Shown: one piece after another, positions 5,626 to 54,131 of the stretch
Position numbering within the stretch: position 1 is the first letter of the stretch
Layout: each line of letters opens with the position of its first letter
Source of the DNA: an uncultured Methanocellaceae archaeon
GTDB taxonomy: Archaea; Halobacteriota; Methanocellia; Methanocellales; Methanocellaceae
Direction of reading: 5' to 3'
DNA: 64,000 nucleotides
Assembly (NCBI GenBank): GCA_963780665.1
Contig: CAWACJ010000005.1
Span: 118,335-182,334, forward strand
Position numbers and translations under genes: made by a program
Notes under the pieces: generated by a model
What the model was told of the DNA's origin: nothing
Database searches by the model: none
What the model saw: the letters and a program-made list of their open reading frames with translations, nothing else

Positions 5626-6807
5626 ATGTACGACGTATATAAGATCAGAGAGGATTTCAGCGTCCTGAAAGAAGTCATCTATCTGGACAGCGCAGCGACC
5701 AGCCAGAAACCCAGACCCGTCGTCGAGGCTATGAACGATTATTTTTACAAATACTGCGGCTCATATGGCAGAGGAGCACACAAGCTAGCCCGGATCACCA
5801 CGGAGAAATATGAGGATGCGCGAGAATCGGTCGCATCCCTATTAGGTATTCCCGCCAATAAGACGATTTTCACTAAGAACACGACTGAAGGCATTAACAT
5901 GATCGCATACGGGCTCAAATGGAAAGCAGGCGATCACATTATCACAGGGGTCACCGAGCACCATAGCAACCTGTTGCCGTGGCTGCGCCTCAGGGATAGA
6001 GGCGTGGAGGTCACGGTCGTGAACTCGGACGAAAAAGGCGTCATAGATCCTGCCGACATCGAATCTGCTATCACCGATAAAACAAGGCTCATCGCGATCG
6101 GGCATATCTCAAATTTTTTTGCAGCCATACAGGACATTAACGCGTACGCGAATATAGCCAGAAAAAATAATATCATGCTGCTGATAGACGCGGCGCAGTC
6201 AGTCGGCGAGATGCCGCTGAACTTTTCACAGATCGGATGCGATTTCATGTGCGCGCCGGGCCATAAAGGATTACTGGGCCCGCAAGGCACTGGTATTTTA
6301 TATATGAAAGACCCGGAGCAGGTGACGCCCGTATATGCCGGGGGCGGTACTGTGGAATCGGTCACGACAAACGGCTTTAGCTTCGATGAAATACCGTCCC
6401 GGTTCGAATACGGCACGCCCAACATACCGGGCGTAATAGGGCTCGGCAGAGCCGCGGAATATGTAAAAGAGCTAGGCCTGGAGAATATAGAGGCCCATGT
6501 GACAGGCCTATCCGAGCTATGCGCAAAGCGACTTTCGGAGATAAAGGGTGTAGATACCTACGGGCCAAAACACAGAGGCTCGCTGGTATCATTCAATGTC
6601 ACCGACCTCAACTCACATGATGTGGCAATGATCCTGGATGAGACAAAAAAGATCTGTATCCGCAGTGGCGCAATGTGCGCGCAGCCTGCGCTGGCGCGAA
6701 TATGCCTCACAGGTGCCGCACGCGCCTCGTTTGGCTGCTATAATACAAGTGAAGAAGTGGAAAAACTGGCATCCTCAGTCGAGATGATCGCCAGGACACT
6801 TGTGTAA
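5626..6807 (+). CDS. Cysteine desulfurase (class V aminotransferase, NifS/SufS/Csd-like)
   Basis: Length is 393 aa. The PLP-lysine motif ...APGHKGLLGPQGTGILY... is present, and the fold matches class V aminotransferases. Confidence 0.8.
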   Translation: MYDVYKIREDFSVLKEVIYLDSAATSQKPRPVVEAMNDYFYKYCGSYGRGAHKLARITTEKYEDARESVASLLGIPANKTIFTKNTTEGINMIAYGLKWKAGDHIITGVTEHHSNLLPWLRLRDRGVEVTVVNSDEKGVIDPADIESAITDKTRLIAIGHISNFFAAIQDINAYANIARKNNIMLLIDAAQSVGEMPLNFSQIGCDFMCAPGHKGLLGPQGTGILYMKDPEQVTPVYAGGGTVESVTTNGFSFDEIPSRFEYGTPNIPGVIGLGRAAEYVKELGLENIEAHVTGLSELCAKRLSEIKGVDTYGPKHRGSLVSFNVTDLNSHDVAMILDETKKICIRSGAMCAQPALARICLTGAARASFGCYNTSEEVEKLASSVEMIARTLV

Positions 6808-7072
6808 CCACGAAGTTCTCGGAGTCTCGGTTTCAACACGGAGACACTGGATGCGCGAAGTAGCACAAAGTTGTTTTTGTGTAAGCCTCCGGCGGCCAGG
6901 GGATTCTATTTTTATTGTGTAAGCCTCCGGCGGCTTACACAAAAACATTCACCACACACCGCACCTCAAACAAGGTCGCACAGCCGCCGGAGGCTTACAC
7001 AAAAACACCTTAGTGCTACTTCGTGCTCCCAGTGTCTCCGTGGTGAAACCGAGACTCCGAGAACTTAGTGGC
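6808..7072. repeat. Nested inverted-repeat element (MITE-like or large RNA/DNA hairpin structure), ~265 bp
   Basis: The outer arms 6808-6895 and 6984-7072 are reverse complements at roughly 90% identity. The arm sequence is cgaagttctcggagtctcggtttcaacacggagacactgg...ttgtttttgtgtaagcctccggcgg. The centre contains a second perfect hairpin, ttgtgtaagcctccggcggcttacacaa. The module ttgtttttgtgtaagcctccggcgg occurs three times (fwd, fwd/rev, rev). Confidence 0.6.
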
Positions 7073-7147
7073 GAGCTTAAAGAATAATAAACTAACAATA
7101 CGGTCTGTTAAGTGTCGAATTATAGTAAAAAAAGGTATTGGTATGTT

Positions 7148-8032
7148 TTATATACCAAACGCATTTTGAAGGGGTGTAGGCGCATGCACGGCCGTTTCAG
7201 GCCCATGCTCGAGACGTTCCTCGGCCCAGGTGTAGATCAACGTGTAGTATGATATGCGGATGAACATGTTGATCGTGGACACGAGCGATATGGCGGTGAA
7301 TGCGAAGATCAGCGCAACAGCGAGCGCCAGTGTCGTATTTGCATAATTCAGTATCGTGAAGATACCTAAGGCAACGACTATAGATACGATGATGCCTACA
7401 AAGGCGAATATACCGGTCAATATACGGATACCTACTTCGCCGGCCCCGATCAACACAAGATTATTCTTGGCGATATCGAAAGCCTTTTTAAAGGAATCGG
7501 TGAAACCGTAGCCGCCGATCACGACGGTCGGGATCAAAAGCATGCTAGCGATCTTCCAGCCTTCATTTAGTGCATCCGCAAAAACCGTGGCTAAAATGCC
7601 TGCGAGCAAGCCTCTTCTATTACCCTGGTTCTTTAATGACTGGACGATCACGTTGATAATAGCGGCCACAAGCGCGATCATCAGAATAGTAGGCGCCCTC
7701 GCCAGTGCCATGCTAAAAGCCTTATTAAGCGAGGATCTACCGAACTTTACATGTTCATAAACGGCGTATGCCGTAGAAGCCATAAAGATGTAGCTGATCG
7801 CATAGCTCACGAACAGCGCGATAAGCAGGAAACCGCCGAAGATGAAGAAAGCGTTTCCGAACACGTTGAAAAGGACCAGCGCTATGACTACAAAAATGCT
7901 GACGAAAAAGCCGATCGCAACAGAAAGTAGAGACGGAAGCAACAGCTTAGGCTCCTCAATGACCATACGATAGCATTCGACGATATATTTAAACGCCTGG
8001 CCGATTGAATCGAATATTGACAACCACATCAC
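7148..8032 (-). CDS. Polytopic integral membrane protein of unknown function
   Basis: Length is 294 aa with at least six predicted hydrophobic helices. No catalytic motif was recognised. Confidence 0.5.
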   Translation of the reverse strand: MMWLSIFDSIGQAFKYIVECYRMVIEEPKLLLPSLLSVAIGFFVSIFVVIALVLFNVFGNAFFIFGGFLLIALFVSYAISYIFMASTAYAVYEHVKFGRSSLNKAFSMALARAPTILMIALVAAIINVIVQSLKNQGNRRGLLAGILATVFADALNEGWKIASMLLIPTVVIGGYGFTDSFKKAFDIAKNNLVLIGAGEVGIRILTGIFAFVGIIVSIVVALGIFTILNYANTTLALAVALIFAFTAISLVSTINMFIRISYYTLIYTWAEERLEHGPETAVHAPTPLQNAFGI

Positions 8033-8858: not shown

Positions 8859-9849
8859 GCGATCCATTATTTTTTATTATCTCGAATTTTTTACCTAACA
8901 TCTGTTCTACAATACATATATTTGTGGATGTATGGCTTGATATACTACTAGCCAGTATCCGTGAGCTTCCTTTTGCAAGGCCCATGAAAATAATAAGCTG
9001 GTCTGCAAGATGCTCATCTACGGCAGCGCCCGTACTGATCTCATTATACATAATTTTCGCGGCGGCGCGCCCGACAGTTTCTGCCGGAATACCGCGCTCA
9101 CCAAGCGAACTCGCGCCCATGAAGCCACGATATAAAGTAATACTGGAGCCAGTAGATGGTTCCTCCCTGACATCTATAGCTATGTCGCCCACATCCAACC
9201 CTTTAGCTTCTAAATATTCTTTTGCAGCCTTAGCCTGCCTTTCGGTAACATGAGACGGCAGTCTGGAAGAGGCGGATATGCCCATTATTTGTCCCTTTGA
9301 AGGAACACTGATATCAGCTCCATGAATAGCACATGGATCTAATGTGATGATCGCTTTTCCTTCGCCCCTGGGGAAAAACCCTCTGTGTATCAAAGAAGCT
9401 GTAATGTCCAGCCCAAAAAGTTGCAGCGCAGGTAATGTCACATATTTAAAATAATCGTAGGGCGGCGACCACTTCACATCCGTGCCCCCGGTGATCTCGA
9501 GAACGATCTTGCTCGAGGAGAAACATGCTATAGGAAGCACACTTTGCAAAACTAGAGTAATACTGCCTGCCGTACCCATGTAGAGCTTATGATATCCCCC
9601 TGCAATAGCTTCAGGTATAAAACGAACCTCTGTTGAGCCCAATGCAAGCCCTTCGATCCTGGCATTACATAGCTTTCCGGCTAGCTCGATCGATTTGATA
9701 TGCTGTGTGCTAAGGCCTGGCTTTGGACGGCCTTTCCTGATATTTTTAATAGTCACGCCTTTGCCAAGTATGGCTGATATCGCTACGGCTGAGCGGAGTA
9801 TCTGGCCTCCGCCTTCGCCGTAGGAGCCATCCACCTCTATGAGGTTCAT
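8842..9849 (-). CDS. rtcA: RNA 3'-terminal phosphate cyclase
   Basis: Length is 335 aa. The N-terminus MNLIEVDGSYGEGGGQILRSAVAISAILGKGVTIKNIRKGRPKPGLSTQHI is canonical for RtcA. The 3' end overlaps the kptA 3' end by ~17 nt in convergent orientation. Confidence 0.85.
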   Translation of the reverse strand: MNLIEVDGSYGEGGGQILRSAVAISAILGKGVTIKNIRKGRPKPGLSTQHIKSIELAGKLCNARIEGLALGSTEVRFIPEAIAGGYHKLYMGTAGSITLVLQSVLPIACFSSSKIVLEITGGTDVKWSPPYDYFKYVTLPALQLFGLDITASLIHRGFFPRGEGKAIITLDPCAIHGADISVPSKGQIMGISASSRLPSHVTERQAKAAKEYLEAKGLDVGDIAIDVREEPSTGSSITLYRGFMGASSLGERGIPAETVGRAAAKIMYNEISTGAAVDEHLADQLIIFMGLAKGSSRILASSISSHTSTNICIVEQMLGKKFEIIKNNGSLIQCE

Positions 9850-9885
9850 AAAAAATAGTATGGATATTCTACTAGTTACATTTTA

Positions 9886-11376
9886 CTAGAACATGCTACC
9901 GATCGACTTCAGCATATTGTTAATGAGATACGATATGTACGTAAGGCTCAATCCGGGAACGGCAACAAGTTCGACTGTAACGTTCATGTCTTTGCCCGGT
10001 ATCACCTGGAAGGTCCCGGTATTATTCCGGTACCCGTCTCTTGATACGAGATACGTATATGAGCCATCCGACTGGTTCTTCAAGTTAACAGAGCCAATGC
10101 CGATATACTGCCCATTCACATAGATCAGCGAATCGTCCGGGCTTACTGTCATACGCACGTTACCGGTACTTTGAACAAGAGTCTTCGATATGCGGGTAGT
10201 ATTTTCGGCCACTATATTAACCGAAAAGTTCTCATTGTGATAACCGCTCATCTGCAAGCTGACATCATGTACACCGGATTTTACACCGGTAAAGTTGTAT
10301 GGTGTCACCTTACCCATGTCACTACCATCAATGAATATCTTAGCGCCTTCAGGATCAGATTGGATCTGAAGTGCCGAGGAATCTACAAAATCCACGTTCA
10401 TAGAGACCGCATAATCATGTGTGACGTTAAGCATGTTCGGATAATATATCAAGAACTTATCCGATTGTTTTGTATAATCTTTACCATTTAGCTGGTAATC
10501 GAGCTTAACGGTATAATTTTCACTGATCGCGTCCTCACTTACGCCATTGAACTCGTAATAGCCATTCTGCCCGGTCGTTGTTTCCATGACGGTTGACAGG
10601 TTACCATTTGATAGCACCTTACTTAGCTGGATCGAAACTCCGGCAAGAGGCACGCCATTCCTTTGTTCTACGTATCCGTGCACTATGTTTACCTGTGGAA
10701 CCGGCGCAGGATGATACGTTACGTTGGGGTTTAAGGTCAGAGGTACGTATATTGTTTCGGACGAGGTATCGTCACTAGCCACATGGACCGGATATTTTTG
10801 AGATGCGTAGGTCGTATTATTTGAATTATGCTCCGCCCATACTACATAATCACCGGTAGGCAGGTAGAATTGCCACTTACTTCCAACGCCTTCCGTGAAA
10901 TATGTATACATCCCATTGTTAAGATATATTGTCGCGCTTACGGGAACGGCATAATTCTGGTCAGCCGTTACTACTCCTGTCATCCAGCCCATTCCGGATG
11001 GCGGGTACCTGAAGATCACGACATCCTCAGGAACTACCTGTAACTCGTTAACTGTGAAAAATATTGTCTTATCCGAATATGTGTTACCATTGGCGTTCAA
11101 AGTCGCTGATAGCCGATAGGTATGGCCGCCAGGTAAGCTATTAAAAGTGTATGAACCGTTAGCATCGCTGACCGCTGTCCCTAGGTTCTTGAACTCGTAG
11201 TCGACGATCTGCACTTGTGCTCCGCTGACAGGATCTCCGTTCTTATCAAGAACGCGACCGGTCACAGAGCCATAGATAATTGATGAATCATTTTGCGCCG
11301 AAGAAACCGGCATTAATGAAATGAGAATGATGAGAATAATAAATATCGAAATTGGCTTAAAGACCATTTTTAACAT
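9886..11376 (-). CDS. Secreted/surface protein with carboxypeptidase-regulatory-like and PEGA beta-sandwich domains
   Basis: A signal peptide (MLKMVFKPISIFIILIILISLMPVSSA) is followed by Ig-like repeats. The C-terminal PEGA-type motif is DPEGAKIFIDGSDMGKVTPYNFTGVKSGVHDVSLQMSGYHNENFSV. Many NxS/T sequons are present. The track ORF extends to 11433, and I take the internal Met as the start. Confidence 0.65.
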   Translation of the reverse strand: MLKMVFKPISIFIILIILISLMPVSSAQNDSSIIYGSVTGRVLDKNGDPVSGAQVQIVDYEFKNLGTAVSDANGSYTFNSLPGGHTYRLSATLNANGNTYSDKTIFFTVNELQVVPEDVVIFRYPPSGMGWMTGVVTADQNYAVPVSATIYLNNGMYTYFTEGVGSKWQFYLPTGDYVVWAEHNSNNTTYASQKYPVHVASDDTSSETIYVPLTLNPNVTYHPAPVPQVNIVHGYVEQRNGVPLAGVSIQLSKVLSNGNLSTVMETTTGQNGYYEFNGVSEDAISENYTVKLDYQLNGKDYTKQSDKFLIYYPNMLNVTHDYAVSMNVDFVDSSALQIQSDPEGAKIFIDGSDMGKVTPYNFTGVKSGVHDVSLQMSGYHNENFSVNIVAENTTRISKTLVQSTGNVRMTVSPDDSLIYVNGQYIGIGSVNLKNQSDGSYTYLVSRDGYRNNTGTFQVIPGKDMNVTVELVAVPGLSLTYISYLINNMLKSIGSMF

Positions 11377-11437: not shown

Positions 11438-13501
11438 TTAGTTCTCCTTCCTCGCGATCAGGTAGGCTACACCGAGTAAGCCTGCAAGTGCGAACAGAGC
11501 CTCAAAGCCCGGGGTGGGCGTTGCGGTCACGGTCGTGGTTGCAGTTGCGGATGCCTGCGTGGTCGGGGTCGGGGTGACAGTTGGCGTCGGCGTGCTTGGT
11601 GCCATGTATGCGTAGTCGGGTATTGCTATGTTGTGCGTAGCTGTACCGATTTCGCCATTGAAGTTCTTTGCACCAGCGATGCTTGTTGCCGTGTTCGGGC
11701 CGAGTACGAAGACTGCGTAGTATACGTGTCCTTGTTTCTCAGCGGTCACGTTGTATAAGCCCCAGGGGACACGGTAGTAGGTGTACATACCGACTGCTGC
11801 CGTCCTTCCATCGTTGGACTGCTGCGGGTTCTCCGGGATCTTTACAATGCCATTGTTGTCATACTGCTCTGCTACTGTGCCGTTCTGTACAGCATACCAT
11901 AAGGTAACGTTTGCGTAGGGTATACCGACCTTGTTCTGGTCAGTGATGATGCCCGACACAGTGCCCCAGCCTACTACGTAGACTACGGTGCTGTTGGAGA
12001 TGACTTCTCCGTACATGATCGACGAGTTAGCAGTTATGTTGACCATACCGATCGTCTTGTTGGACGTTAAGGGTATTGTCGCCTGACCGTTCAGGTCCGA
12101 TACGTTCGTCTTCACGGCCGGTAAGGTCGCGACGGTGTCGTTGTCCGACGAGAACTGTATCTTAATGTTTGACCTGTGGTACGGCTGACCGTTCAAGTAT
12201 AACTGAGCGGTGATGATCGACGTGTCGCCACCAACCAGGATTGTGGATGGGTCAGCGGTCACATAGATTGCATCGGGAGGCGGTACATGCAGAACAATGA
12301 ATCCCGACGAGGTCGAGGACTTGTTCAGCGAGTAGTTGTTGCTCCTGCCGTAGATCGTCATGTTGTCGGTCAGCTGAGCGCTCGCATCAGCGAATGCCCA
12401 TGCAGTGTCCGGAGTCAGGACGATGTTGTCAAAGACATACAATCCTACGAACGGCTGTGAGCTGCTCGTTGGTGCAGTCATGTTGTAGATTTCGCCATTC
12501 GAGGCGTTCCTGACGTGCAGAGTCACGGTGATGCCACCGTAGCCAGTGCCGTAGGAGTCAACAACGTAGCCAGTCCATGATGCAGTCGGTGCCCTGAAGT
12601 AGATCTTCACGGAGCCGTTGATCGATGGGTCTGCTGCATAGTATGCCCAGATCGTGGTGTTGTTGCCGCCCCTTATGTCAGGTACCCAGCCGTACTGGAT
12701 CGTGGCTGCGCCATCCTTGGTGGATACGTTGCCGGATGTGATACCAGTGCGCTGTGTGAGGCCGCCGATGTTGTTGCCACCAGTCGTGCTGTTGTAACCA
12801 TAGAAGCTACCGTTGTAGTAGTTGGTCGTTCCTGCGCTCATGTCTCCTGTCGGCTTCACGCCACCCCAGCTTGCCTGGTTGGTCATGTTGTCGATTGAGA
12901 AGAAGACCGGTGTGCCATCGCCGACCTTGTTTCCAAGGGCGTCGTAGACATATGCAGTGATCTGTATGTTGTCTGCAGAGTCAGATACAACGTAGTTCCT
13001 CTCGGCCGTTACTGTGATCTTGGCCGCCTTGGTGAATATGACGACTGATGTGGTCGATGTTGCGCTGCTCTGTACGCTGAACGCGTGTGAGTAGCCTTCA
13101 CCGAACGGGCTGAGGTTAGCGTACATCATGTAAGCTTCTCCGGATGCAGGTCCAGATGCTGTTACAGCAGGTGAGACCACGCCCCCGTTAACGGTCGCGT
13201 TAACGCCAGTCATCTGGTAGTAACCCATTGCATCGGCGGTTACGTTAAAGTATTCCTGGCTATTATTCGATGCGTTGACGATCGATACATAAGCCCCACC
13301 GAGACCTACAGTCGTGTTCTGGGTGGTAACCCTACCAGTAACTGAACCCGTGCTCCAAGTAGACGGCATTGCAGGGTAAGAGTTTGCGTTGACACCCGTG
13401 CCGAATGTAGTTGGATACGAGGCAGTTGCGGCTGGTAATGCAACGGCAATAAGTGACATTATCATTATTGCTGCTAATGCTGCCTTAGTATTAGTTTTCA
13501 T
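11438..13501 (-). CDS. S-layer-type surface glycoprotein with a PGF-CTERM archaeosortase sorting signal
   Basis: Length is 687 aa. It has a signal peptide and a Thr/Pro-rich linker (PTPTVTPTPTT...). The C-terminus is PGFEALFALAGLLGVAYLIARKEN, i.e. PGF plus a TM helix plus basic tail. NxS/T sequons are dense, and GGAGGT sits 7 nt upstream of the ATG. Confidence 0.8.
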   Translation of the reverse strand: MKTNTKAALAAIMIMSLIAVALPAATASYPTTFGTGVNANSYPAMPSTWSTGSVTGRVTTQNTTVGLGGAYVSIVNASNNSQEYFNVTADAMGYYQMTGVNATVNGGVVSPAVTASGPASGEAYMMYANLSPFGEGYSHAFSVQSSATSTTSVVIFTKAAKITVTAERNYVVSDSADNIQITAYVYDALGNKVGDGTPVFFSIDNMTNQASWGGVKPTGDMSAGTTNYYNGSFYGYNSTTGGNNIGGLTQRTGITSGNVSTKDGAATIQYGWVPDIRGGNNTTIWAYYAADPSINGSVKIYFRAPTASWTGYVVDSYGTGYGGITVTLHVRNASNGEIYNMTAPTSSSQPFVGLYVFDNIVLTPDTAWAFADASAQLTDNMTIYGRSNNYSLNKSSTSSGFIVLHVPPPDAIYVTADPSTILVGGDTSIITAQLYLNGQPYHRSNIKIQFSSDNDTVATLPAVKTNVSDLNGQATIPLTSNKTIGMVNITANSSIMYGEVISNSTVVYVVGWGTVSGIITDQNKVGIPYANVTLWYAVQNGTVAEQYDNNGIVKIPENPQQSNDGRTAAVGMYTYYRVPWGLYNVTAEKQGHVYYAVFVLGPNTATSIAGAKNFNGEIGTATHNIAIPDYAYMAPSTPTPTVTPTPTTQASATATTTVTATPTPGFEALFALAGLLGVAYLIARKEN
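11550..12510. repeat. Dispersed repeat copy A (~1 kb), near-identical to 52300..53260
   Basis: The protein blocks YNMT...PFVGLYVFDNI...GEIGTATHNIAIPDYAY are about 90% identical between the two surface-protein genes. The antisense spurious ORFs 11668..11907 and 52424..52660 are themselves near-identical, which indicates nucleotide-level conservation. Boundaries are approximate. Confidence 0.5.
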
Positions 13502-24705: not shown

Positions 24706-24939
24706 TATTTAAAGATTTACCTACTGATGCAAAACGGCTTGATGTAGTGAAAAGCAACCGTTTGTGGTTTTAGTGTCCAATCAAGGCTTGTGTTATTCTC
24801 AGTATGCGGAGTCACCCGGCCGTCGGAGGCATATACGAAAACATCTTTGAGAATATCCGTGAAGTCAGTGTCTCCGTGTTGAAACAGTGAGCTTCGAGCA
24901 TTTTGCGAGCTTAGATATGCATAAAGAAAAAAGCGATTT

Positions 24940-44200: not shown

Positions 44201-44320
44201 AATTTTTTTTTGCCAGCCAGGCGGGGGCCTTTATTCCATCGTACCATCGCAAATTGAAAACAGCCTCCGGCGGCTGAACTATTACGAACATTTTGTTTAG
44301 GGCGATTTCGTCTTGCGCTT

Positions 44321-44623
44321 ATGCAGGCATATACCCATATCGATGCTCTACTTTACATTTATCATATGGACTTTTTAGGGTTCGTGGAAAAGTATGGCGA
44401 AGCGACGACGAGATCAGCTCTCATGCTGGTGGTCGGCCGCATCAGGGGCATAATAAAAGAAAAGGTCGCCAGAGCTGCGGCCACGGACGGCATAGTGACA
44501 CTTTCTATAGATGAGCTGAGATGCGATGTCGCAAGCGTAGCTCACGTGCTTAATGAGTTTCCCTTTTCACCTGAAGAAAAAAACATACTACTCCATAAGG
44601 CATGGGAGATCGTGTCTCCATAA
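44321..44623 (+). CDS. Hypothetical protein
   Basis: A 100-aa ORF in an otherwise empty region. No motif was recognised. Confidence 0.3.
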   Translation: MQAYTHIDALLYIYHMDFLGFVEKYGEATTRSALMLVVGRIRGIIKEKVARAAATDGIVTLSIDELRCDVASVAHVLNEFPFSPEEKNILLHKAWEIVSP

Positions 44624-46168: not shown

Positions 46169-46247
46169 AGTGCGGCTATATTATTTACGTAACCGGAAAA
46201 TATTAAATAGTATCAGTAGAAATTAGAGCGTCAGGCATTTCTTGATG

Positions 46248-46330
46248 TCGCGGTATCCAAGCCTGGTATGGAGCAGGTTTGCTAAACCTGTGTTCGAAAG
46301 GACTCCGGAGTTCAAATCTCCGCCGCGGCG
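46248..46330 (+). tRNA. tRNA-Ser (anticodon GCU)
   Basis: The acceptor stem is GTCGCGG paired with CCGCGGC plus G. The D-arm is UCCA/UGGA. The anticodon stem CAGGT/ACCTG carries the loop TTGCTAA, giving GCT. There is a long variable arm, and the T-arm is CGGAG-TTCAAAT-CTCCG. Confidence 0.8.
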
Positions 46331-46393
46331 CTGAAGCAGGTGTATCCGGGCCTTCTGGCTTGGATACATGATTTGTTTTTAATGGTTTTCTTT

Positions 46394-46503
46394 GTTTTCG
46401 CGGGTGCGACGATATAGAAGAAAATATAGTTTATCACCATTTTCGCGGGTGCGACGATTAAAGAAGAAAATATAGTTTATCACCATTTTCGCGGGTGCGA
46501 CGC
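46394..46503. repeat. Tandem direct repeat, ~46-47 bp unit x ~2.4, followed by GC-rich low-complexity sequence
   Basis: ttttcgcgggtgcgacgat[at/ta]a[g/a]aagaaaatatagtttatcaccat is repeated, and a third partial unit follows. The intervening sequences are identical, so this is not a CRISPR. Downstream lies gctcgc/cttcgc-rich sequence and the hairpin cgtgccgacatgacggcacg. Confidence 0.7.
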
Positions 46504-46816
46504 TCGCTCTCTTCGTTCGCTCGCTACTCGTCGTTTTGGGTGCTTCGATGTCCGGGCCGGGCTCGCACCCTCGCTCGGCTTCGCTTCGCTCGCCTCGCTC
46601 CGCAAGCCCTAAGCAGCGTGCCGACATGACGGCACGCTCATTGCCCGGCCATCTACGCATCGGCCTTCGGCCGACTGATGCCCAAAACGCCTCGCCGACT
46701 GCGACCGTCGTAATTATTATGTCTGTTTTTTAAAATACTTTCAATAAACTATAACCTCAAATTAATATTGATAACTGAATAATCGATTGTATAAGATAAT
46801 CCGGGAGGATAATTTG

Positions 46817-47200
46817 ATGTTTAGTGAATGTGAGATCAAGAAACAGCCGGCCCAGCCGGTGATGTCTATACGTGCGAGAACGTCTGTGCAGAATCTGCCC
46901 ATGGTTCTTGGAAAAGCTTTCGGCGACGTGGCAATGTATATCGGCGAGCAAGGCCAGCAGCCACAGGGTCCGCCCTTTGTTGCATATTATAATATGGACA
47001 TGGAAAATCTTGACATCGAGATAGGTTTCCCGGTCTCGAAAAAGTTACCAGGTAGAGGCGAGGTCAAGGCGAGCGAGATACCTGCGGGTAAGGTGGCCAC
47101 CTGCGTATATACCGGGCCGTATGGCGAAGAAATGAAGGCGGCTTATGAGGCGCTCGGCAAGCTGGTGGAGGATAAAGGGTACGTACCGACGCCAATATAA
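46817..47200 (+). CDS. GyrI-like / AraC-effector-binding-like small-molecule-binding domain protein
   Basis: About 127 aa from the internal Met. ...FVAYYNMDMENLDIEIGFPV...GKVATCVYTGPYGE... fits GyrI-like patterns. Confidence 0.5.
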   Translation: MFSECEIKKQPAQPVMSIRARTSVQNLPMVLGKAFGDVAMYIGEQGQQPQGPPFVAYYNMDMENLDIEIGFPVSKKLPGRGEVKASEIPAGKVATCVYTGPYGEEMKAAYEALGKLVEDKGYVPTPI

Positions 47201-47275
47201 AATTTTTTAAAGGCTTGCGGAAAACTTTTTGAAAAAAGTTTTCCTGCTATGTTATATATAATTTTAAAGTTTATA

Positions 47276-47587
47276 TTACAAACCAGTTTGGAGCGCCGAG
47301 CCGATACCGTTGCACCGGAACTCCGGGCACACATATAGGGCGACCAACCACGGGCAAAGATCCTGCCGCGATAGGATATCTGCCCGCGAGAGCCCGACAG
47401 TGCCAGTCGGCGTGCCGTCGACGAACGCAACGTAGATCATTGGAAAATCGGTGTTCCTACAATGCGCGACCAGACTGCGCCAAAATTCGACGTTCTTCGG
47501 TGTACCAAAGCTCTCACAGAGCCAACGGATTATCAGGTCTTTGAGTTCCGGATGCTCGGCCACATCGTAGAATTCAATTGCGTTCAT
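47276..47587 (-). pseudogene. GNAT acetyltransferase fragment (truncated after motif A)
   Basis: ...VALYVCPEFRCNGIGSAL is motif A, but the ORF stops ~15 aa later. Motif B and the remaining ~40 aa expected for GNATs are absent. Confidence 0.45.
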
Positions 47588-47734
47588 AACCTACCCATAT
47601 CGGTTACTTCTATAATAAAATTATCAATATAGCCAAAGAACACCTATATACCAAGCATTAGCCTACAACCACTCACACAACAATCCATTACCAAAATTCA
47701 ACACAGCATCAACGAAGTCAATGTATCAAGAAAT

Positions 47735-48160
47735 TTTTATGAAAATATTCTAGCGCAGAAGGTCGCGTTTGATCATGGCGAATGTGTGACTTTTTCAGCC
47801 GGATTCGCTATAATGCTCAGGAGCTTCGCGCATAAGATCATATTTAACGGACAAAATATTGAGACGTCATCCGAACAAAACACCGGTGTCGAGCTATATT
47901 TTGAAACGGACGATATTGTAGGTGTGCGGGACTCATTTCTGAAACGAAGAGTGGAATTTATTCATGATATTTTTGAACAGCCATGGGGGTAGCGTGTGTT
48001 CAGGATATATGACCCGGACAAGTACATCGTTGAATTTGGAGAGCCCATGGATATAGTGATAAAAAGGTATATTGGACAGGGAATGTCAGCAGAAGAGACA
48101 GCGATCAGGACTTCGATGCCATTAGATATCGTAAGTCAGGTGGAAAAGAAGATTCGTTAA
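47735..48160 (+). pseudogene. VOC/glyoxalase-family gene remnant with an in-frame TAG (47990-47992) and no canonical start
   Basis: A single frame reads ...FYENILAQKVAFDHGECVTFSAGFAIML...ELYFETDDIVGVRDSF...EQPWG*RVFRIYDPDKYIVEFGEP... The stop replaces the conserved Q of the WGQR motif, and upstream there is no ATG/GTG/TTG giving a full domain. Confidence 0.5.
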
Positions 48161-48201
48161 ACGGCAGGCTCAAAGATCACAACATTTTACTAATTAAACG
48201 A

Positions 48202-48639
48202 TTAATAATTGGGCCCGAACTCTATTTTGTGTAGCAGTTCTTTGTCCGCTTCCGTCATCTTCGCATCCGAGCATATATGATATAGACATACGGGACTTCG
48301 TAGCTCTCGTGGTATGATACATCCCCGATCATCCCGGCAGAACCCGTCCCTGGCGTCGCAATATTCGGCCATCTTTCTTGCGGAGTCTTCGTCCAGCATA
48401 TGCTCTTCTCTTTGCCAGTGCCCGCAGGTATCGACGCAATCCGAGCAGCATCCTTCGGGCTTTACATCACTGTATCTGCAAAAGCTCTTGCCGTCGCTGC
48501 AGTCAAAATCAATGCCTTCGGTCTGCTTGGCCAGCGCTCGATAAGTGTCGACATCATAGCCGCGTATACTCCTGACATCCTTTGGAACGATGGTGATCTT
48601 TAATTTAGAAAGTAAATGCTCGAATTCATCATAACGCAT
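48202..48639 (-). CDS. Cysteine-rich hypothetical protein
   Basis: About 146 aa from MRYDEF. It has many Cys in C-x-x-C-like spacing: CSDGKSFC, CCSDCVDTC, CIIP...C. Confidence 0.35.
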   Translation of the reverse strand: MRYDEFEHLLSKLKITIVPKDVRSIRGYDVDTYRALAKQTEGIDFDCSDGKSFCRYSDVKPEGCCSDCVDTCGHWQREEHMLDEDSARKMAEYCDARDGFCRDDRGCIIPRELRSPVCLYHICSDAKMTEADKELLHKIEFGPNY

Positions 48640-48902
48640 GATTATCGCCTTTTCTCGGCTATTATCCGATGCCCGCCTATTTATGGATATACCTGATGTC
48701 ATAGTTAATTTATCTGTTTAGAATTGTCCCGGATGATTAATAGTCACCCAGCATGCCGATCTCATCGTGAACGCCTGTAGCGATTTGCCCGAGACCGTTC
48801 GAATTATTCGGGCCTTATGTAGCTGGCAAAGGGTTTTACATAATCGGGAATAAGCGTATAAGGCGGGCATAAGGCGCGTCTGGTAAAGGGAGTTGTTTCA
48901 GC

Positions 48903-52202: not shown

Positions 52203-54131
52203 TTAATTTTGCTTCCTTATAGTCAAATAGGCGACACTAAATAAGCTGACAAACGCGAATATTGCCTCAAACCCCGGCGAAGGTATCATAGAAGGAGTCG
52301 GCACTGTTGAGGCAGCCGGTACTATCGTGGAAGGCGTCGGGGTCACATCGCTCGGGAGTGGTGCAAAGTATGCGTAGTCGGGTATGGCGATATTATGCGT
52401 AGCTGTACCGATCTCGCCGTTGAATGCCGCCACACCTGTCGCCGAACCCGGACCCAGAGCGAACACGGCATAATAGATATGTCCGTCCTTCTCAGCGGTC
52501 ACGTTGTATAAGCCCCATGGGACACGGTAGTAGGTGTACATACCGACTGCTGCCGTCCTTCCATCGTTGGACTGCTGCGGGTTCTCCGGGATTTTTACGA
52601 TGCCGTTGTTGTCATACTGTTCAGCCACGGATGAATTCTGCACAGCATTCCACAGAGTAACGTTTGCGTAGGGTATACCGACCTTGTTCTGGTCAGTGAT
52701 GATGCCCGACACAGTGCCCCAGCCAACAACCTTGACCAGAGTGCTGTTCGAGACATTAGTACCATACATGATATTAGTGCTCGCAGTCACGTTGACCCAG
52801 CCGTATGAACGATTGGACGTTAAGGGTATTGTCGCCTGACCGTTCAGGTCAGATACGTTCGTCCTCACGGCCGGCAAGGTCGCTACGGTGTCGTTGTCCG
52901 ACGAGAACTGAATCTTAATGTTTGACCTGTGGTACGGCTGGCCGTTCAAGTACAGCTGAGCGGTGATGGTCGACGTGTCGCCACCAACCAGGATCGTTTG
53001 CGGATCAGCGGTCACATAGATTGCATCGGGAGGCGGTACATGCAGAACAATGAATCCCGAAGACGTTGAGGACTTATTCAAGGAATAATTATTACTCCTA
53101 CCGTAGATCGTCATGTTGTCGGTCAGCTGAGCGCTCGCGTCAGCGAATGCCCATGCAGTATCCGGAGTCAGGGCGATGTTGTCAAAGACATACAATCCTA
53201 CGAACGGCTTTGATGTACTCGTTGTCGTGGTCATATTATAAATCTCGCCATTCGAGGCGTTCCTTATGTGCAAGGTCACGATGATGCCACCGTAGCCGGT
53301 GTCATAAGAATCGACGACATAGCCGGTCCACGAGGAAGCCATCGGCATGAATCGTATAGCCACGGAGCCGTTTATGTTCGGGCTGTTTGCAACATATGCA
53401 TGGATCGCCGTGTTATTCCCGCCCATCGTATCCGGCACCCAGCCAAAATCGACGGTCGCTACGCCACCTTTTGTAAACGCGGTAGCGTTGTTCACGCTGT
53501 TATACCGGCTGAAGCTGCCGTTATTTTGGTTCATCGGCGTGCCATTCGCATATGTCCACGACGGAAGGCTTGACATGTCCCCGATAGTGAACCATACTGC
53601 CGTGCCGTCGCCGACAGCATTGCCGAAGACGTCATAAACACGGGCAGTCACCTGGATATTGTCCGCACTATCTGCTAAGATATAATTACGCGCTGCCTGA
53701 ACATTGACGCTGGAAGCATTGAGGAAAATGATGACCGAAGTGGTCGAAGTGGCGCCGGGATTAATGCCGAACGCATGGGAGAACCCCTCGCCGTACTTAG
53801 TGAGATTGGCGTATATCATATATGAGTTGTCATCGAGCGTCGCGTTGACACCGATCATCTGGTAATAGCCCTGCGAATCTGCGGTAACGTTAAAATACTC
53901 TACACTATTGTTTGAGGCATTAACGATCGATACGTAGGCCCCGCCAATACCTTGTGTCGTGTGCTGCGTCGTCACCCTGCCAGTCACCTGGCCGGTCATC
54001 CATCCCGATGGCATTTGTGGATAATGGCTGCCGAAGCTGGTCGGATACGAGGCTGTAGCCGGAGGGATGATAATTGCCATGATCGATATGATCATCATAG
54101 CTGCAATGGCAGCTCTGGTAGTACTTTTCAT
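52203..54131 (-). CDS. S-layer-type surface glycoprotein with PGF-CTERM, paralog of 11438..13501
   Basis: Length is 642 aa, with a signal peptide. The C-terminus is PSPGFEAIFAFVSLFSVAYLTIRKQN. The C-terminal ~320 aa are about 90% identical to the other copy. Confidence 0.8.
   Translation of the reverse strand: MKSTTRAAIAAMMIISIMAIIIPPATASYPTSFGSHYPQMPSGWMTGQVTGRVTTQHTTQGIGGAYVSIVNASNNSVEYFNVTADSQGYYQMIGVNATLDDNSYMIYANLTKYGEGFSHAFGINPGATSTTSVIIFLNASSVNVQAARNYILADSADNIQVTARVYDVFGNAVGDGTAVWFTIGDMSSLPSWTYANGTPMNQNNGSFSRYNSVNNATAFTKGGVATVDFGWVPDTMGGNNTAIHAYVANSPNINGSVAIRFMPMASSWTGYVVDSYDTGYGGIIVTLHIRNASNGEIYNMTTTTSTSKPFVGLYVFDNIALTPDTAWAFADASAQLTDNMTIYGRSNNYSLNKSSTSSGFIVLHVPPPDAIYVTADPQTILVGGDTSTITAQLYLNGQPYHRSNIKIQFSSDNDTVATLPAVRTNVSDLNGQATIPLTSNRSYGWVNVTASTNIMYGTNVSNSTLVKVVGWGTVSGIITDQNKVGIPYANVTLWNAVQNSSVAEQYDNNGIVKIPENPQQSNDGRTAAVGMYTYYRVPWGLYNVTAEKDGHIYYAVFALGPGSATGVAAFNGEIGTATHNIAIPDYAYFAPLPSDVTPTPSTIVPAASTVPTPSMIPSPGFEAIFAFVSLFSVAYLTIRKQN
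52300..53260. repeat. Dispersed repeat copy B (~1 kb), near-identical to 11550..12510
   Basis: See copy A. Boundaries are approximate. Confidence 0.5.

Follow-up and report, generated by a model that had tools for sequence, protein, structure and literature searches.

A Methanocellaceae family of probable MITE-type elements, one copy of which abuts the stop codon of a cysteine desulfurase gene

[quoted passage not shown] When transcribed they form long hairpins, and they can supply the terminators or promoters of neighbouring genes. Surveys of prokaryotic MITEs are given in PMC11602168 and PMC10969869, the former a 2024 census with 18,091 unnamed archaeal MITEs that may include the family described here. 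All of these traits recur in a family of inverted-repeat elements from Methanocellaceae, the copies of which measure 190-640 bp and have no coding interior. Unlike typical prokaryotic MITEs, however, this family has unusually long (90-190 nt), internally repetitive arms and no known cognate insertion sequence. Literature searches, both with the module sequence and for MITEs of Methanocella, returned no description of it.

The copy from which we started lies in a 64-kb stretch of Methanocellaceae DNA, hereafter the window. We read it as a non-autonomous MITE-type DNA transposon of a Methanocellaceae-specific family, with a probability of roughly 0.8. That it is a mobile, non-autonomous, inverted-repeat element is a conclusion we hold with high confidence from its multi-copy distribution and its presence or absence at corresponding sites in relatives. 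The family is a new member of a well-known kind, is unsurprising as such and changes no general concept.

An inverted-repeat search of the window returned two 89-nt arms, 92% complementary and separated by 86 nt (Table 1), as its sole long local inverted repeat. These arms agree with those that a first-pass annotation, made from the letters alone, had placed at 6808-6895 and 6984-7072 with ~90% identity. An additional perfect hairpin had been proposed for the core and is present as a 28-nt palindrome; likewise, a 25-bp module said to occur three times is found exactly at 6871-6895, with 92% identity at 6909-6933 and inverted with one mismatch at 6984-7008, while the remaining half of that central palindrome is a fourth half-copy. 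Of the extent first given, 6808-7072, the left start holds, but the right limit does not, as element-derived sequence reaches ~7099-7110 (the BLAST alignment to the related locus L031 runs to 7099), and the size of the element is accordingly 264-303 bp. The 18-nt module core gives 5 hits against 0.05 expected in the window and is present four times in the element, and the 36-nt outer arm matches twice against 0 expected; since these counts are far above expectation and were reached by none of 100 shuffles, the repeats of arm and module are not due to chance. The predicted RNA fold has -183.5 kcal/mol compared with -78.7 +/- 5 for shuffled sequences (z = -21). The lack of coding capacity was confirmed as well: overlapping open reading frames (ORFs) comprise only 57 and 65 aa, and a search with an 86-aa read-through translation across the whole element, intended to detect spurious ORFs in other copies too, gave no relative among 5.8 billion proteins.

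Table 1. Element parts, flanking genes and relics in the 64-kb window (positions in the window; a dot marks features given without a strand)
Feature	Position	Strand	Details
Cysteine desulfurase (class-V aminotransferase) gene	5626-6807	+	Pfam Aminotran_5, E = 3.5e-123
Left arm	6808-6896	+	Terminus CCACGAAGTTCTC..., CACNAAG-type repeats, module 1 TTGTTTTTGTGTAA-GCCTCCGGCGGC, core 6885-6896
Central perfect palindrome TTGTGTAAGCCTCCGGCGGCTTACACAA	6915-6942	.	Left-end and right-end inner modules fused inside the 12-nt core 6923-6934
Spacer, right-end inner to outer module	6943-6982	.	Long-spacer version, ~60 nt core to core
Right arm	6983-7071	-	Core 6983-6994, GCCGCCGGAGGC on the + strand; terminus ...GAGAACTTAGTGG
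Outer right piece	7072-7110	.	CGAGC, TTAA (7077-7080), AGAATAATAAACTAACAAT...; homologous to the L031 outer right piece
DUF6159 membrane protein gene	7148-8032	-	Pfam DUF6159; own T7 run 7128-7134 outside the element
Degenerate solo arm	24806-24921	-	Core GCCGTCGGAGGC, one mismatch; spacer between a 312-aa ORF and CofC, upstream of CofC
Relic	44250-44345	+	Exact core 44263-44274 and degenerate inverted module GCAGGCATATAC; intergenic spacer

As first annotated, the element is located between convergent genes, here an Aminotran_5 gene on the + strand, whose homologues in Methanocella are named cysteine desulfurase, and a DUF6159 gene on the - strand. Judged by the neighbouring genes and the best protein matches, the window belongs to an uncultured Methanocellaceae member, ~70% identical to Methanocella species. 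With 393 aa the desulfurase is as long as in relatives, indicating that the insertion left the protein unaltered. Its stop codon, TAA (6805-6807), abuts the element directly, with a gap of 0 nt; because the element starts at the stop codon, the desulfurase transcript must enter it. Every module is flanked on either side by outward-facing T5 tracts (6873-6877 and 6910-6914, each with its mirror image), and since the first of them follows 66 nt into the element, the element probably provides the terminator now. Judged from this layout, it would probably act as the 3' untranslated region of the desulfurase gene, supplying the first oligo-T tracts and a long 3' hairpin. The final 8 nt of the gene (6800-6807, TTGTGTAA) exactly match the sequence on the 5' side of the element's module, where TTGTGTAA precedes GCCTCC. 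Both differences from the 94% identical relative in this octamer (GTA TGA there) are synonymous, and the match is probably a coincidence.

Within the source genome the copy census covered the 64-kb window, and with related loci added it revealed ~10 further copies or relics: two relics in the window, which hence holds one intact copy and two relics, and others in related metagenome-assembled genomes (MAGs) and in a single metagenome. With two arm profiles, nhmmer recovered the solo arm of the window at E values of 6.5e-17 and 3.6e-26; this arm shows a 76% inverted match to 6825-6906. The other relic holds an exact 12-mer core, a sequence expected ~0.008 times per window. Scans of genome collections used exact patterns only. 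Among 185,579 species genomes (one per prokaryotic species), an 18-mer was found at 11 loci, nine of them chance matches in unrelated bacteria and two on different contigs of one Methanocellaceae MAG (L006 and L007). Both of the latter carry the ~90-nt end known from the window, CACTAAGTTCTCGGAGTC..GGTTTCAACACGGAGAC..CACGAAGTAGCACAAA.TTGTTTTTGTGTAAGCCTCCGGCGGC. The L006 relic consists of one full arm and inner modules. The L007 copy, in turn, is ~570 bp long with ~190-nt arms; in L031, which is the full L007 locus, its inverted repeats measure 104 and 61 nt, and a short variant is present in addition, placing copies or relics at two sites of this locus. A scan of metagenomes with the 18-mer returned only two short contigs, L012, which ends inside the repeat, and L013, which carries a partial copy. 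Searching with the arm profile (nhmmer) added the solo arm in the window and two members each in L019 and L023; those of the L019 locus, part of a related MAG, are diverged, measure ~215 bp (L019A) and ~385 bp (L019B) and have inverted repeats as well. Throughout, family copies are located in intergenic DNA in unrelated contexts and orientations, some of them between tandem or divergent genes.

Comparison of orthologous sites revealed that these copies come and go between relatives. In L014, where the desulfurase is 94% identical and the gene order (desulfurase, convergent DUF6159, Tpt1) is the same, the spacer between desulfurase and DUF6159 genes spans 98 bp as opposed to 340 bp in the window. 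This short spacer has no significant similarity to the element, and we rejected the idea that it keeps a relic of it, as 903 of 2000 shuffles reach the alignment score. In L030, an 85% relative, the 55 nt that follow the desulfurase stop codon lack the element as well, as do the sequence after the stop codon in 75% relatives (L015-18) and the 144-bp spacer of 71% relatives (L024/L025). The comparison of orthologous spacers proposed at the outset thus yielded absence at 94%, 75% and 71% protein identity, and instead of a single copy conserved in position we found a multi-copy family that varies at orthologous sites. The 71% relative L024 has a small hairpin in its spacer (11183-11326), CACAAAGACACGAAGA...TCTTCATGTCTTTGCG, which weakly resembles the heptamer-repeat arms of the family (16 of 2000 shuffles reach the score).

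Complementarily, a second site displays the insertion itself. The copy in L031 occupies 639 bp, inserted exactly between TAG and the sequence CGTG (CGTGTTATT), which adjoin each other directly in L019 and L023, which are 95% (neighbour gene) and 85% identical, respectively. At a third site, between GH15 and glycosyltransferase genes, L019 has a full copy and L023 a half copy. The same site in L031 (11762-11840) contains only a 19-nt hairpin, CCACGGCATGTTGCCGTGG, which looks like element termini joined after internal collapse or excision. Variable presence, together with decay by internal deletion as described below, indicates the behaviour of a mobile element and not that of a conserved functional locus. 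Of the candidates put forward by the first-pass annotation, a MITE is therefore supported, by the multi-copy family, the presence or absence at orthologous sites and the lack of coding capacity, while a structured RNA and a protein-binding array lack support as primary explanations. Four hallmarks of a MITE were observed, namely small non-coding size, terminal inverted repeats, dispersed copies and insertion polymorphism.

Alignment of 12 arms and 20 modules showed that the ends follow a common plan. Read from outside to inside, they usually start with TTAA, followed by a GCTC-CAC(G/T)AAG-type terminus and by ~65 nt rich in CAC(G/T/A)A(A/G), on a single strand and 9-11 nt apart. Next comes module 1, TTTTnGTnTAA-GCCTCCGGCGGC-YnnGnGA (~30 nt), then a spacer of 38 or ~60 nt and finally module 2. 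CACNAR motifs number 2-7 per arm, compared with 0.1-0.5 expected, and are essentially lacking on the opposite strand; the CAC(G/T/A)AAG repeats are spaced by roughly one helical turn. The left arm of the window element can be aligned with the arms of L006, L007/L031, L012, L013 and L019. The 38-nt module spacing of its left end also occurs in L007-R and L019B, and the 59-62-nt spacing of its right end in L007-L/L031-R and L006. At both ends the modules point inward, with the core reading GCCTCCGGCGGC at the left end and GCCGCCGGAGGC at the right end. This 12-nt core is a dyad except for two positions, at which the asymmetry is preserved. In contrast to the invariant core, arms from different subfamilies are only 68-79% alike. 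Judged from architecture, the modules and probably the heptamer array would be binding sites for the mobilising protein, and we see even odds that the modules are bound by a transposase.

The conservation of the core also bears on a different view, in which GCCTCCGGCGGC is an operator or nucleoid-protein site of the host and the elements are a domesticated repeat, kept or spread for its sake. A dimeric binder would suit the dyad symmetry, the core shows no variation at 21 sites despite a divergence of the arms to ~70%, and L019B and L023, which are copies at one site, agree in three cores at 35 of 36 positions, compared with ~75% overall. Yet all 21 sites found in 243 kb of Methanocellaceae DNA are within family elements or relics and none stands alone at a promoter; the strict inward orientation at both ends resembles transposase sites, cores accumulate mutations in relics (24819 in the window, 7875 in L007, 3101 in L023), and presence varies between close relatives. 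We consider a host binding array very unlikely. There is a somewhat better, albeit still small, chance that the invariant core and the maintained arm complementarity at re-used sites mark something less ordinary, either a novel archaeal transposase type (TTAA-linked and duplication-poor in its integration, with several recognition sites per end) or host-used, site-renewed protein-binding or hairpin modules of 3' untranslated regions.

Returning to the MITE reading, the central hairpin of the window element can be traced to a longer form. BLAST aligned window positions 6809-6934 with L031 9343-9468 (87%) and positions 6923-7099 with L031 9760-9935 (76.5%). The two collinear alignments overlap exactly on the 12-nt core 6923-6934, from which we conclude that the window copy is a deletion derivative with its ends fused in the inner core; the perfect central hairpin results from this fusion of the two ends. 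In L031, the corresponding inner cores occupy 9457-9468 on the left and 9760-9771 on the right, with 291 nt between them, and both copies share the asymmetric spacing of 38 nt at one end and 60 nt at the other. As the core is identical to its own complement at 10 of 12 positions, two inverted cores also constitute a direct repeat, albeit a short one. A ~600-bp form could thereby have lost ~290 internal bp through slippage from one inner core to the other. The window copy, which lacks the interior and one outer piece, is probably immobile.

Such a history would also be expected if the family represented the fused ends of a larger, internally deleted element with long terminal inverted repeats, such as a provirus, a linear plasmid or a casposon-like element. 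The ends are indeed long and complex (~125-190 nt), the window copy is demonstrably the product of an internal deletion, and the junctions in L031 have no clean short duplication. However, the ~10 known copies remain within the size range given above and none has a coding interior. Blastn against plasmid and phage records gave no similarity to the element, and a search of 2.9 million viral contigs with two module variants gave no matches or chance matches only. Casposons produce target duplications of 14-15 bp and insert next to tRNA or EF-2 genes. No such duplication was seen at any copy and the sites are assorted intergenic spacers, which led us to reject a casposon origin in particular; a larger parent of any of these kinds appears very unlikely.

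Under the MITE reading, the termini should reveal how copies integrate, and here the data are mixed. Of 12 independent ends, 8 have TTAA immediately outside the terminus, compared with a background of 0.9% in these spacers, and further ends show it with one mismatch, namely GTAA (left end in the window), TCAA (left end of L019A) and ATAA (left end of L031). The solo arm in the window has CTAA a few nucleotides outside its terminus. In GTAA, the TAA part is the desulfurase stop codon; the stop context in the 85% relative L030, ACT TAA AA, contains TTAA. A duplication of TA, TAA or TTAA fits four of five complete copies, with TTAA imperfect on one side in three of the five. At the sole precisely bounded insertion, that of L031 compared with L019 and L023, there is no clean duplication at TAG/TATTATG...TTCTCTA/CGTG, and the spacers of window and L014 and of L020 and L021 are too diverged for precise duplication calls. 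Moreover, similarity between window and L031 persists for 20-35 nt past the right TTAA (window 7077-7099), and the local alignment score of this outer right piece with L031 9896-9947 was reached by 0 of 2000 shuffles. The outer pieces of L031 are weak inverted repeats of each other, and the window element lacks the left outer ~30 nt present in the longer form. Either a TTAA-bounded MITE tends to be nested in an older palindrome of small size, or TTAA is internal and the true ends extend further out. For TA/TTAA-linked integration of an IS630/Tc1-like or IS5-like kind, we regard the case as evenly balanced.

Comparison with well-described transposons points to similar plans but to no exact counterpart. 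The ends resemble the IR-DR ends of the IS630/Tc1-mariner group (Tc3, Sleeping Beauty) in having long inverted repeats with two directly repeated sites each, and, where this group inserts at TA, a TA (within TTAA or TAA) flanks four of five complete copies at the start of the conserved arms. In contrast to IR-DR ends, where the outer binding site is at the terminus, the modules are situated at least 65 nt inside; the termini read AGCTCAC... rather than CAGT..., and the empty-site comparison for L031 gives no TA duplication. The piggyBac superfamily, which is TTAA-specific and eukaryotic, shares the TTAA next to most ends and the asymmetry of the ends (38 versus ~60 nt), but homology within our family continues beyond TTAA. 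We rejected a piggyBac-like origin on account of the inexact TTAA duplication (the left-end variants in the window, L031 and L019A listed above) and of termini that read GCTC/CCAC and not CCC...GGG; we know of no piggyBac-like transposase in archaea. CACTA (En/Spm) and hAT/P-type transposons of eukaryotes have ends of many short, oriented repeats, similar to the CACNAAG every 9-11 nt found here, and in those transposons the sub-terminal arrays are multiple transposase-binding sites. Some termini of the family even read CACTAAG; the likeness, across domains of life, is one of architecture only. With the PATEs derived from IS200/IS605 and with REP/BIME sequences the family has in common a non-coding, intergenic nature, imperfect palindromes and no obvious target duplication. 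Those sequences lack terminal inverted repeats and have hairpins in the same orientation, while here whole ends and modules are inverted, and we rejected this origin for that reason. An integron attC reading was considered and set aside.

From the terminal inverted repeats and the sub-terminal site arrays, mobilisation in trans by a DDE-type transposase appears probable. Such an enzyme, supplied in trans, would bind the sub-terminal modules and repeats, pair both ends and cut near the TTAA-adjacent termini, after which the element would re-insert into AT-rich, TA- or TTAA-containing intergenic DNA. In the case of the window copy, the landing site would have been exactly the desulfurase stop codon. 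ORFs of the window and of neighbouring loci were checked for a transposase and proved to be housekeeping genes only, and an autonomous partner, that is a transposase gene with the same ends, was not found in the checked window genes and ~180 kb of related loci.

The stability of the predicted fold, and the start of the element directly behind a stop codon, where it is probably transcribed, would equally be expected of a structured non-coding RNA gene or of a cis-acting hairpin selected for its fold, for example one that stabilises or processes the 3' end of the desulfurase mRNA. A further argument in this direction comes from the spacer between AsnC and histone genes, where L031 (18981-19273), L019 (19079-19595) and L023 (10321-10936) each have a different variant of the family: arms are 86-89% complementary within a copy, compared with 69-74% alike at the same site between genomes. 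Nevertheless, no Rfam 15 family comes near its threshold. The best hit reaches 18.6 bits where the gathering score is 72, the best matches of the element are miRNA models with 15-19 bits against thresholds of 72-108, and over the whole 64-kb window only a tRNA passes. Four sets of relatives lack the element in the corresponding spacer, its copies occupy unrelated contexts and orientations, and solo arms and half copies persist although they cannot fold. Transversions make up five of the seven mismatches between the two arms in the window, showing that pairing is not kept through wobble-compatible changes, and such a fold would be expected of any inverted-repeat transposon. We thus judge selection for an RNA structure to be highly improbable.

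The AsnC-histone site has its own bearing on the history of the family. L023 has an extra module there, which favours a hot spot with repeated insertion or replacement as the simplest reading; arm-to-arm conversion or selection for pairing could also produce the pattern, which is at odds with a purely neutral picture. We rejected L019B and L023 as a simple orthologous pair in neutral decay, as L031, the 95% relative, has another variant at this position.

Finally, although oligo-T is an archaeal termination signal and the outward T5 tracts flank every module, a primary role as bidirectional terminator between convergent genes is hardly credible, because in relatives both genes end at simple T-runs within element-free spacers of 98-144 bp, the DUF6159 gene retains its own T7 run outside the element, and other copies are found between tandem or divergent genes.

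Further repeats were noted in the same sequences. L020 contains a different inverted-repeat element of ~675 bp (9240-9914) with ends TTAA/GCTCACTAATG and CACNAA-rich arms, without the GCCTCCGGCGGC core; L021 lacks this element in its 122-bp spacer. A MITE of a third kind, with ends CCGCCTGTCGGGTATCACAGAG, is nested in the ~675-bp element at L020 9403-9695 and stands alone at L020 14643-14941. More long intergenic inverted-repeat elements are located at L019 16770-17270 and L021 20894-21174, one of them containing numerous copies of CACTAA. Several MITE-like families appear to be abundant in these Methanocellaceae MAGs. In the window, after a tRNA-Ser(GCT) gene (46247-46331), TTTTCGCGGGTGCGACG occurs three times (46413-46502, a tandem duplication of 46 nt), and the next ~2.5 kb (to 48900) have no ORFs other than short ones that resemble fragments (GyrI-like, GNAT, glyoxalase-like); the stretch 46247-48900 may be a decayed element integrated at a tRNA gene. 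Two paralogous ORFs on the - strand, 11438-13501 (687 aa) and 52203-54131 (642 aa), are ~40.7 kb apart and share stretches of 86-91% nucleotide identity.

Methanocellaceae are important contributors to the methane that rice fields and wetlands release. To this lineage, whose mobilome is barely described, the family adds defined mobile elements, and its invariant core and oriented heptamer arrays offer a handle for tracing the transposase responsible. It also shows how a long palindrome decays by deletion at a quasi-palindromic core. In practical terms, its insertions serve as strain-level markers of presence or absence, and its repeats explain breaks in metagenome contigs such as L012. For the organism itself, an element that probably acts as the 3' untranslated region of the desulfurase gene could affect termination or mRNA stability.
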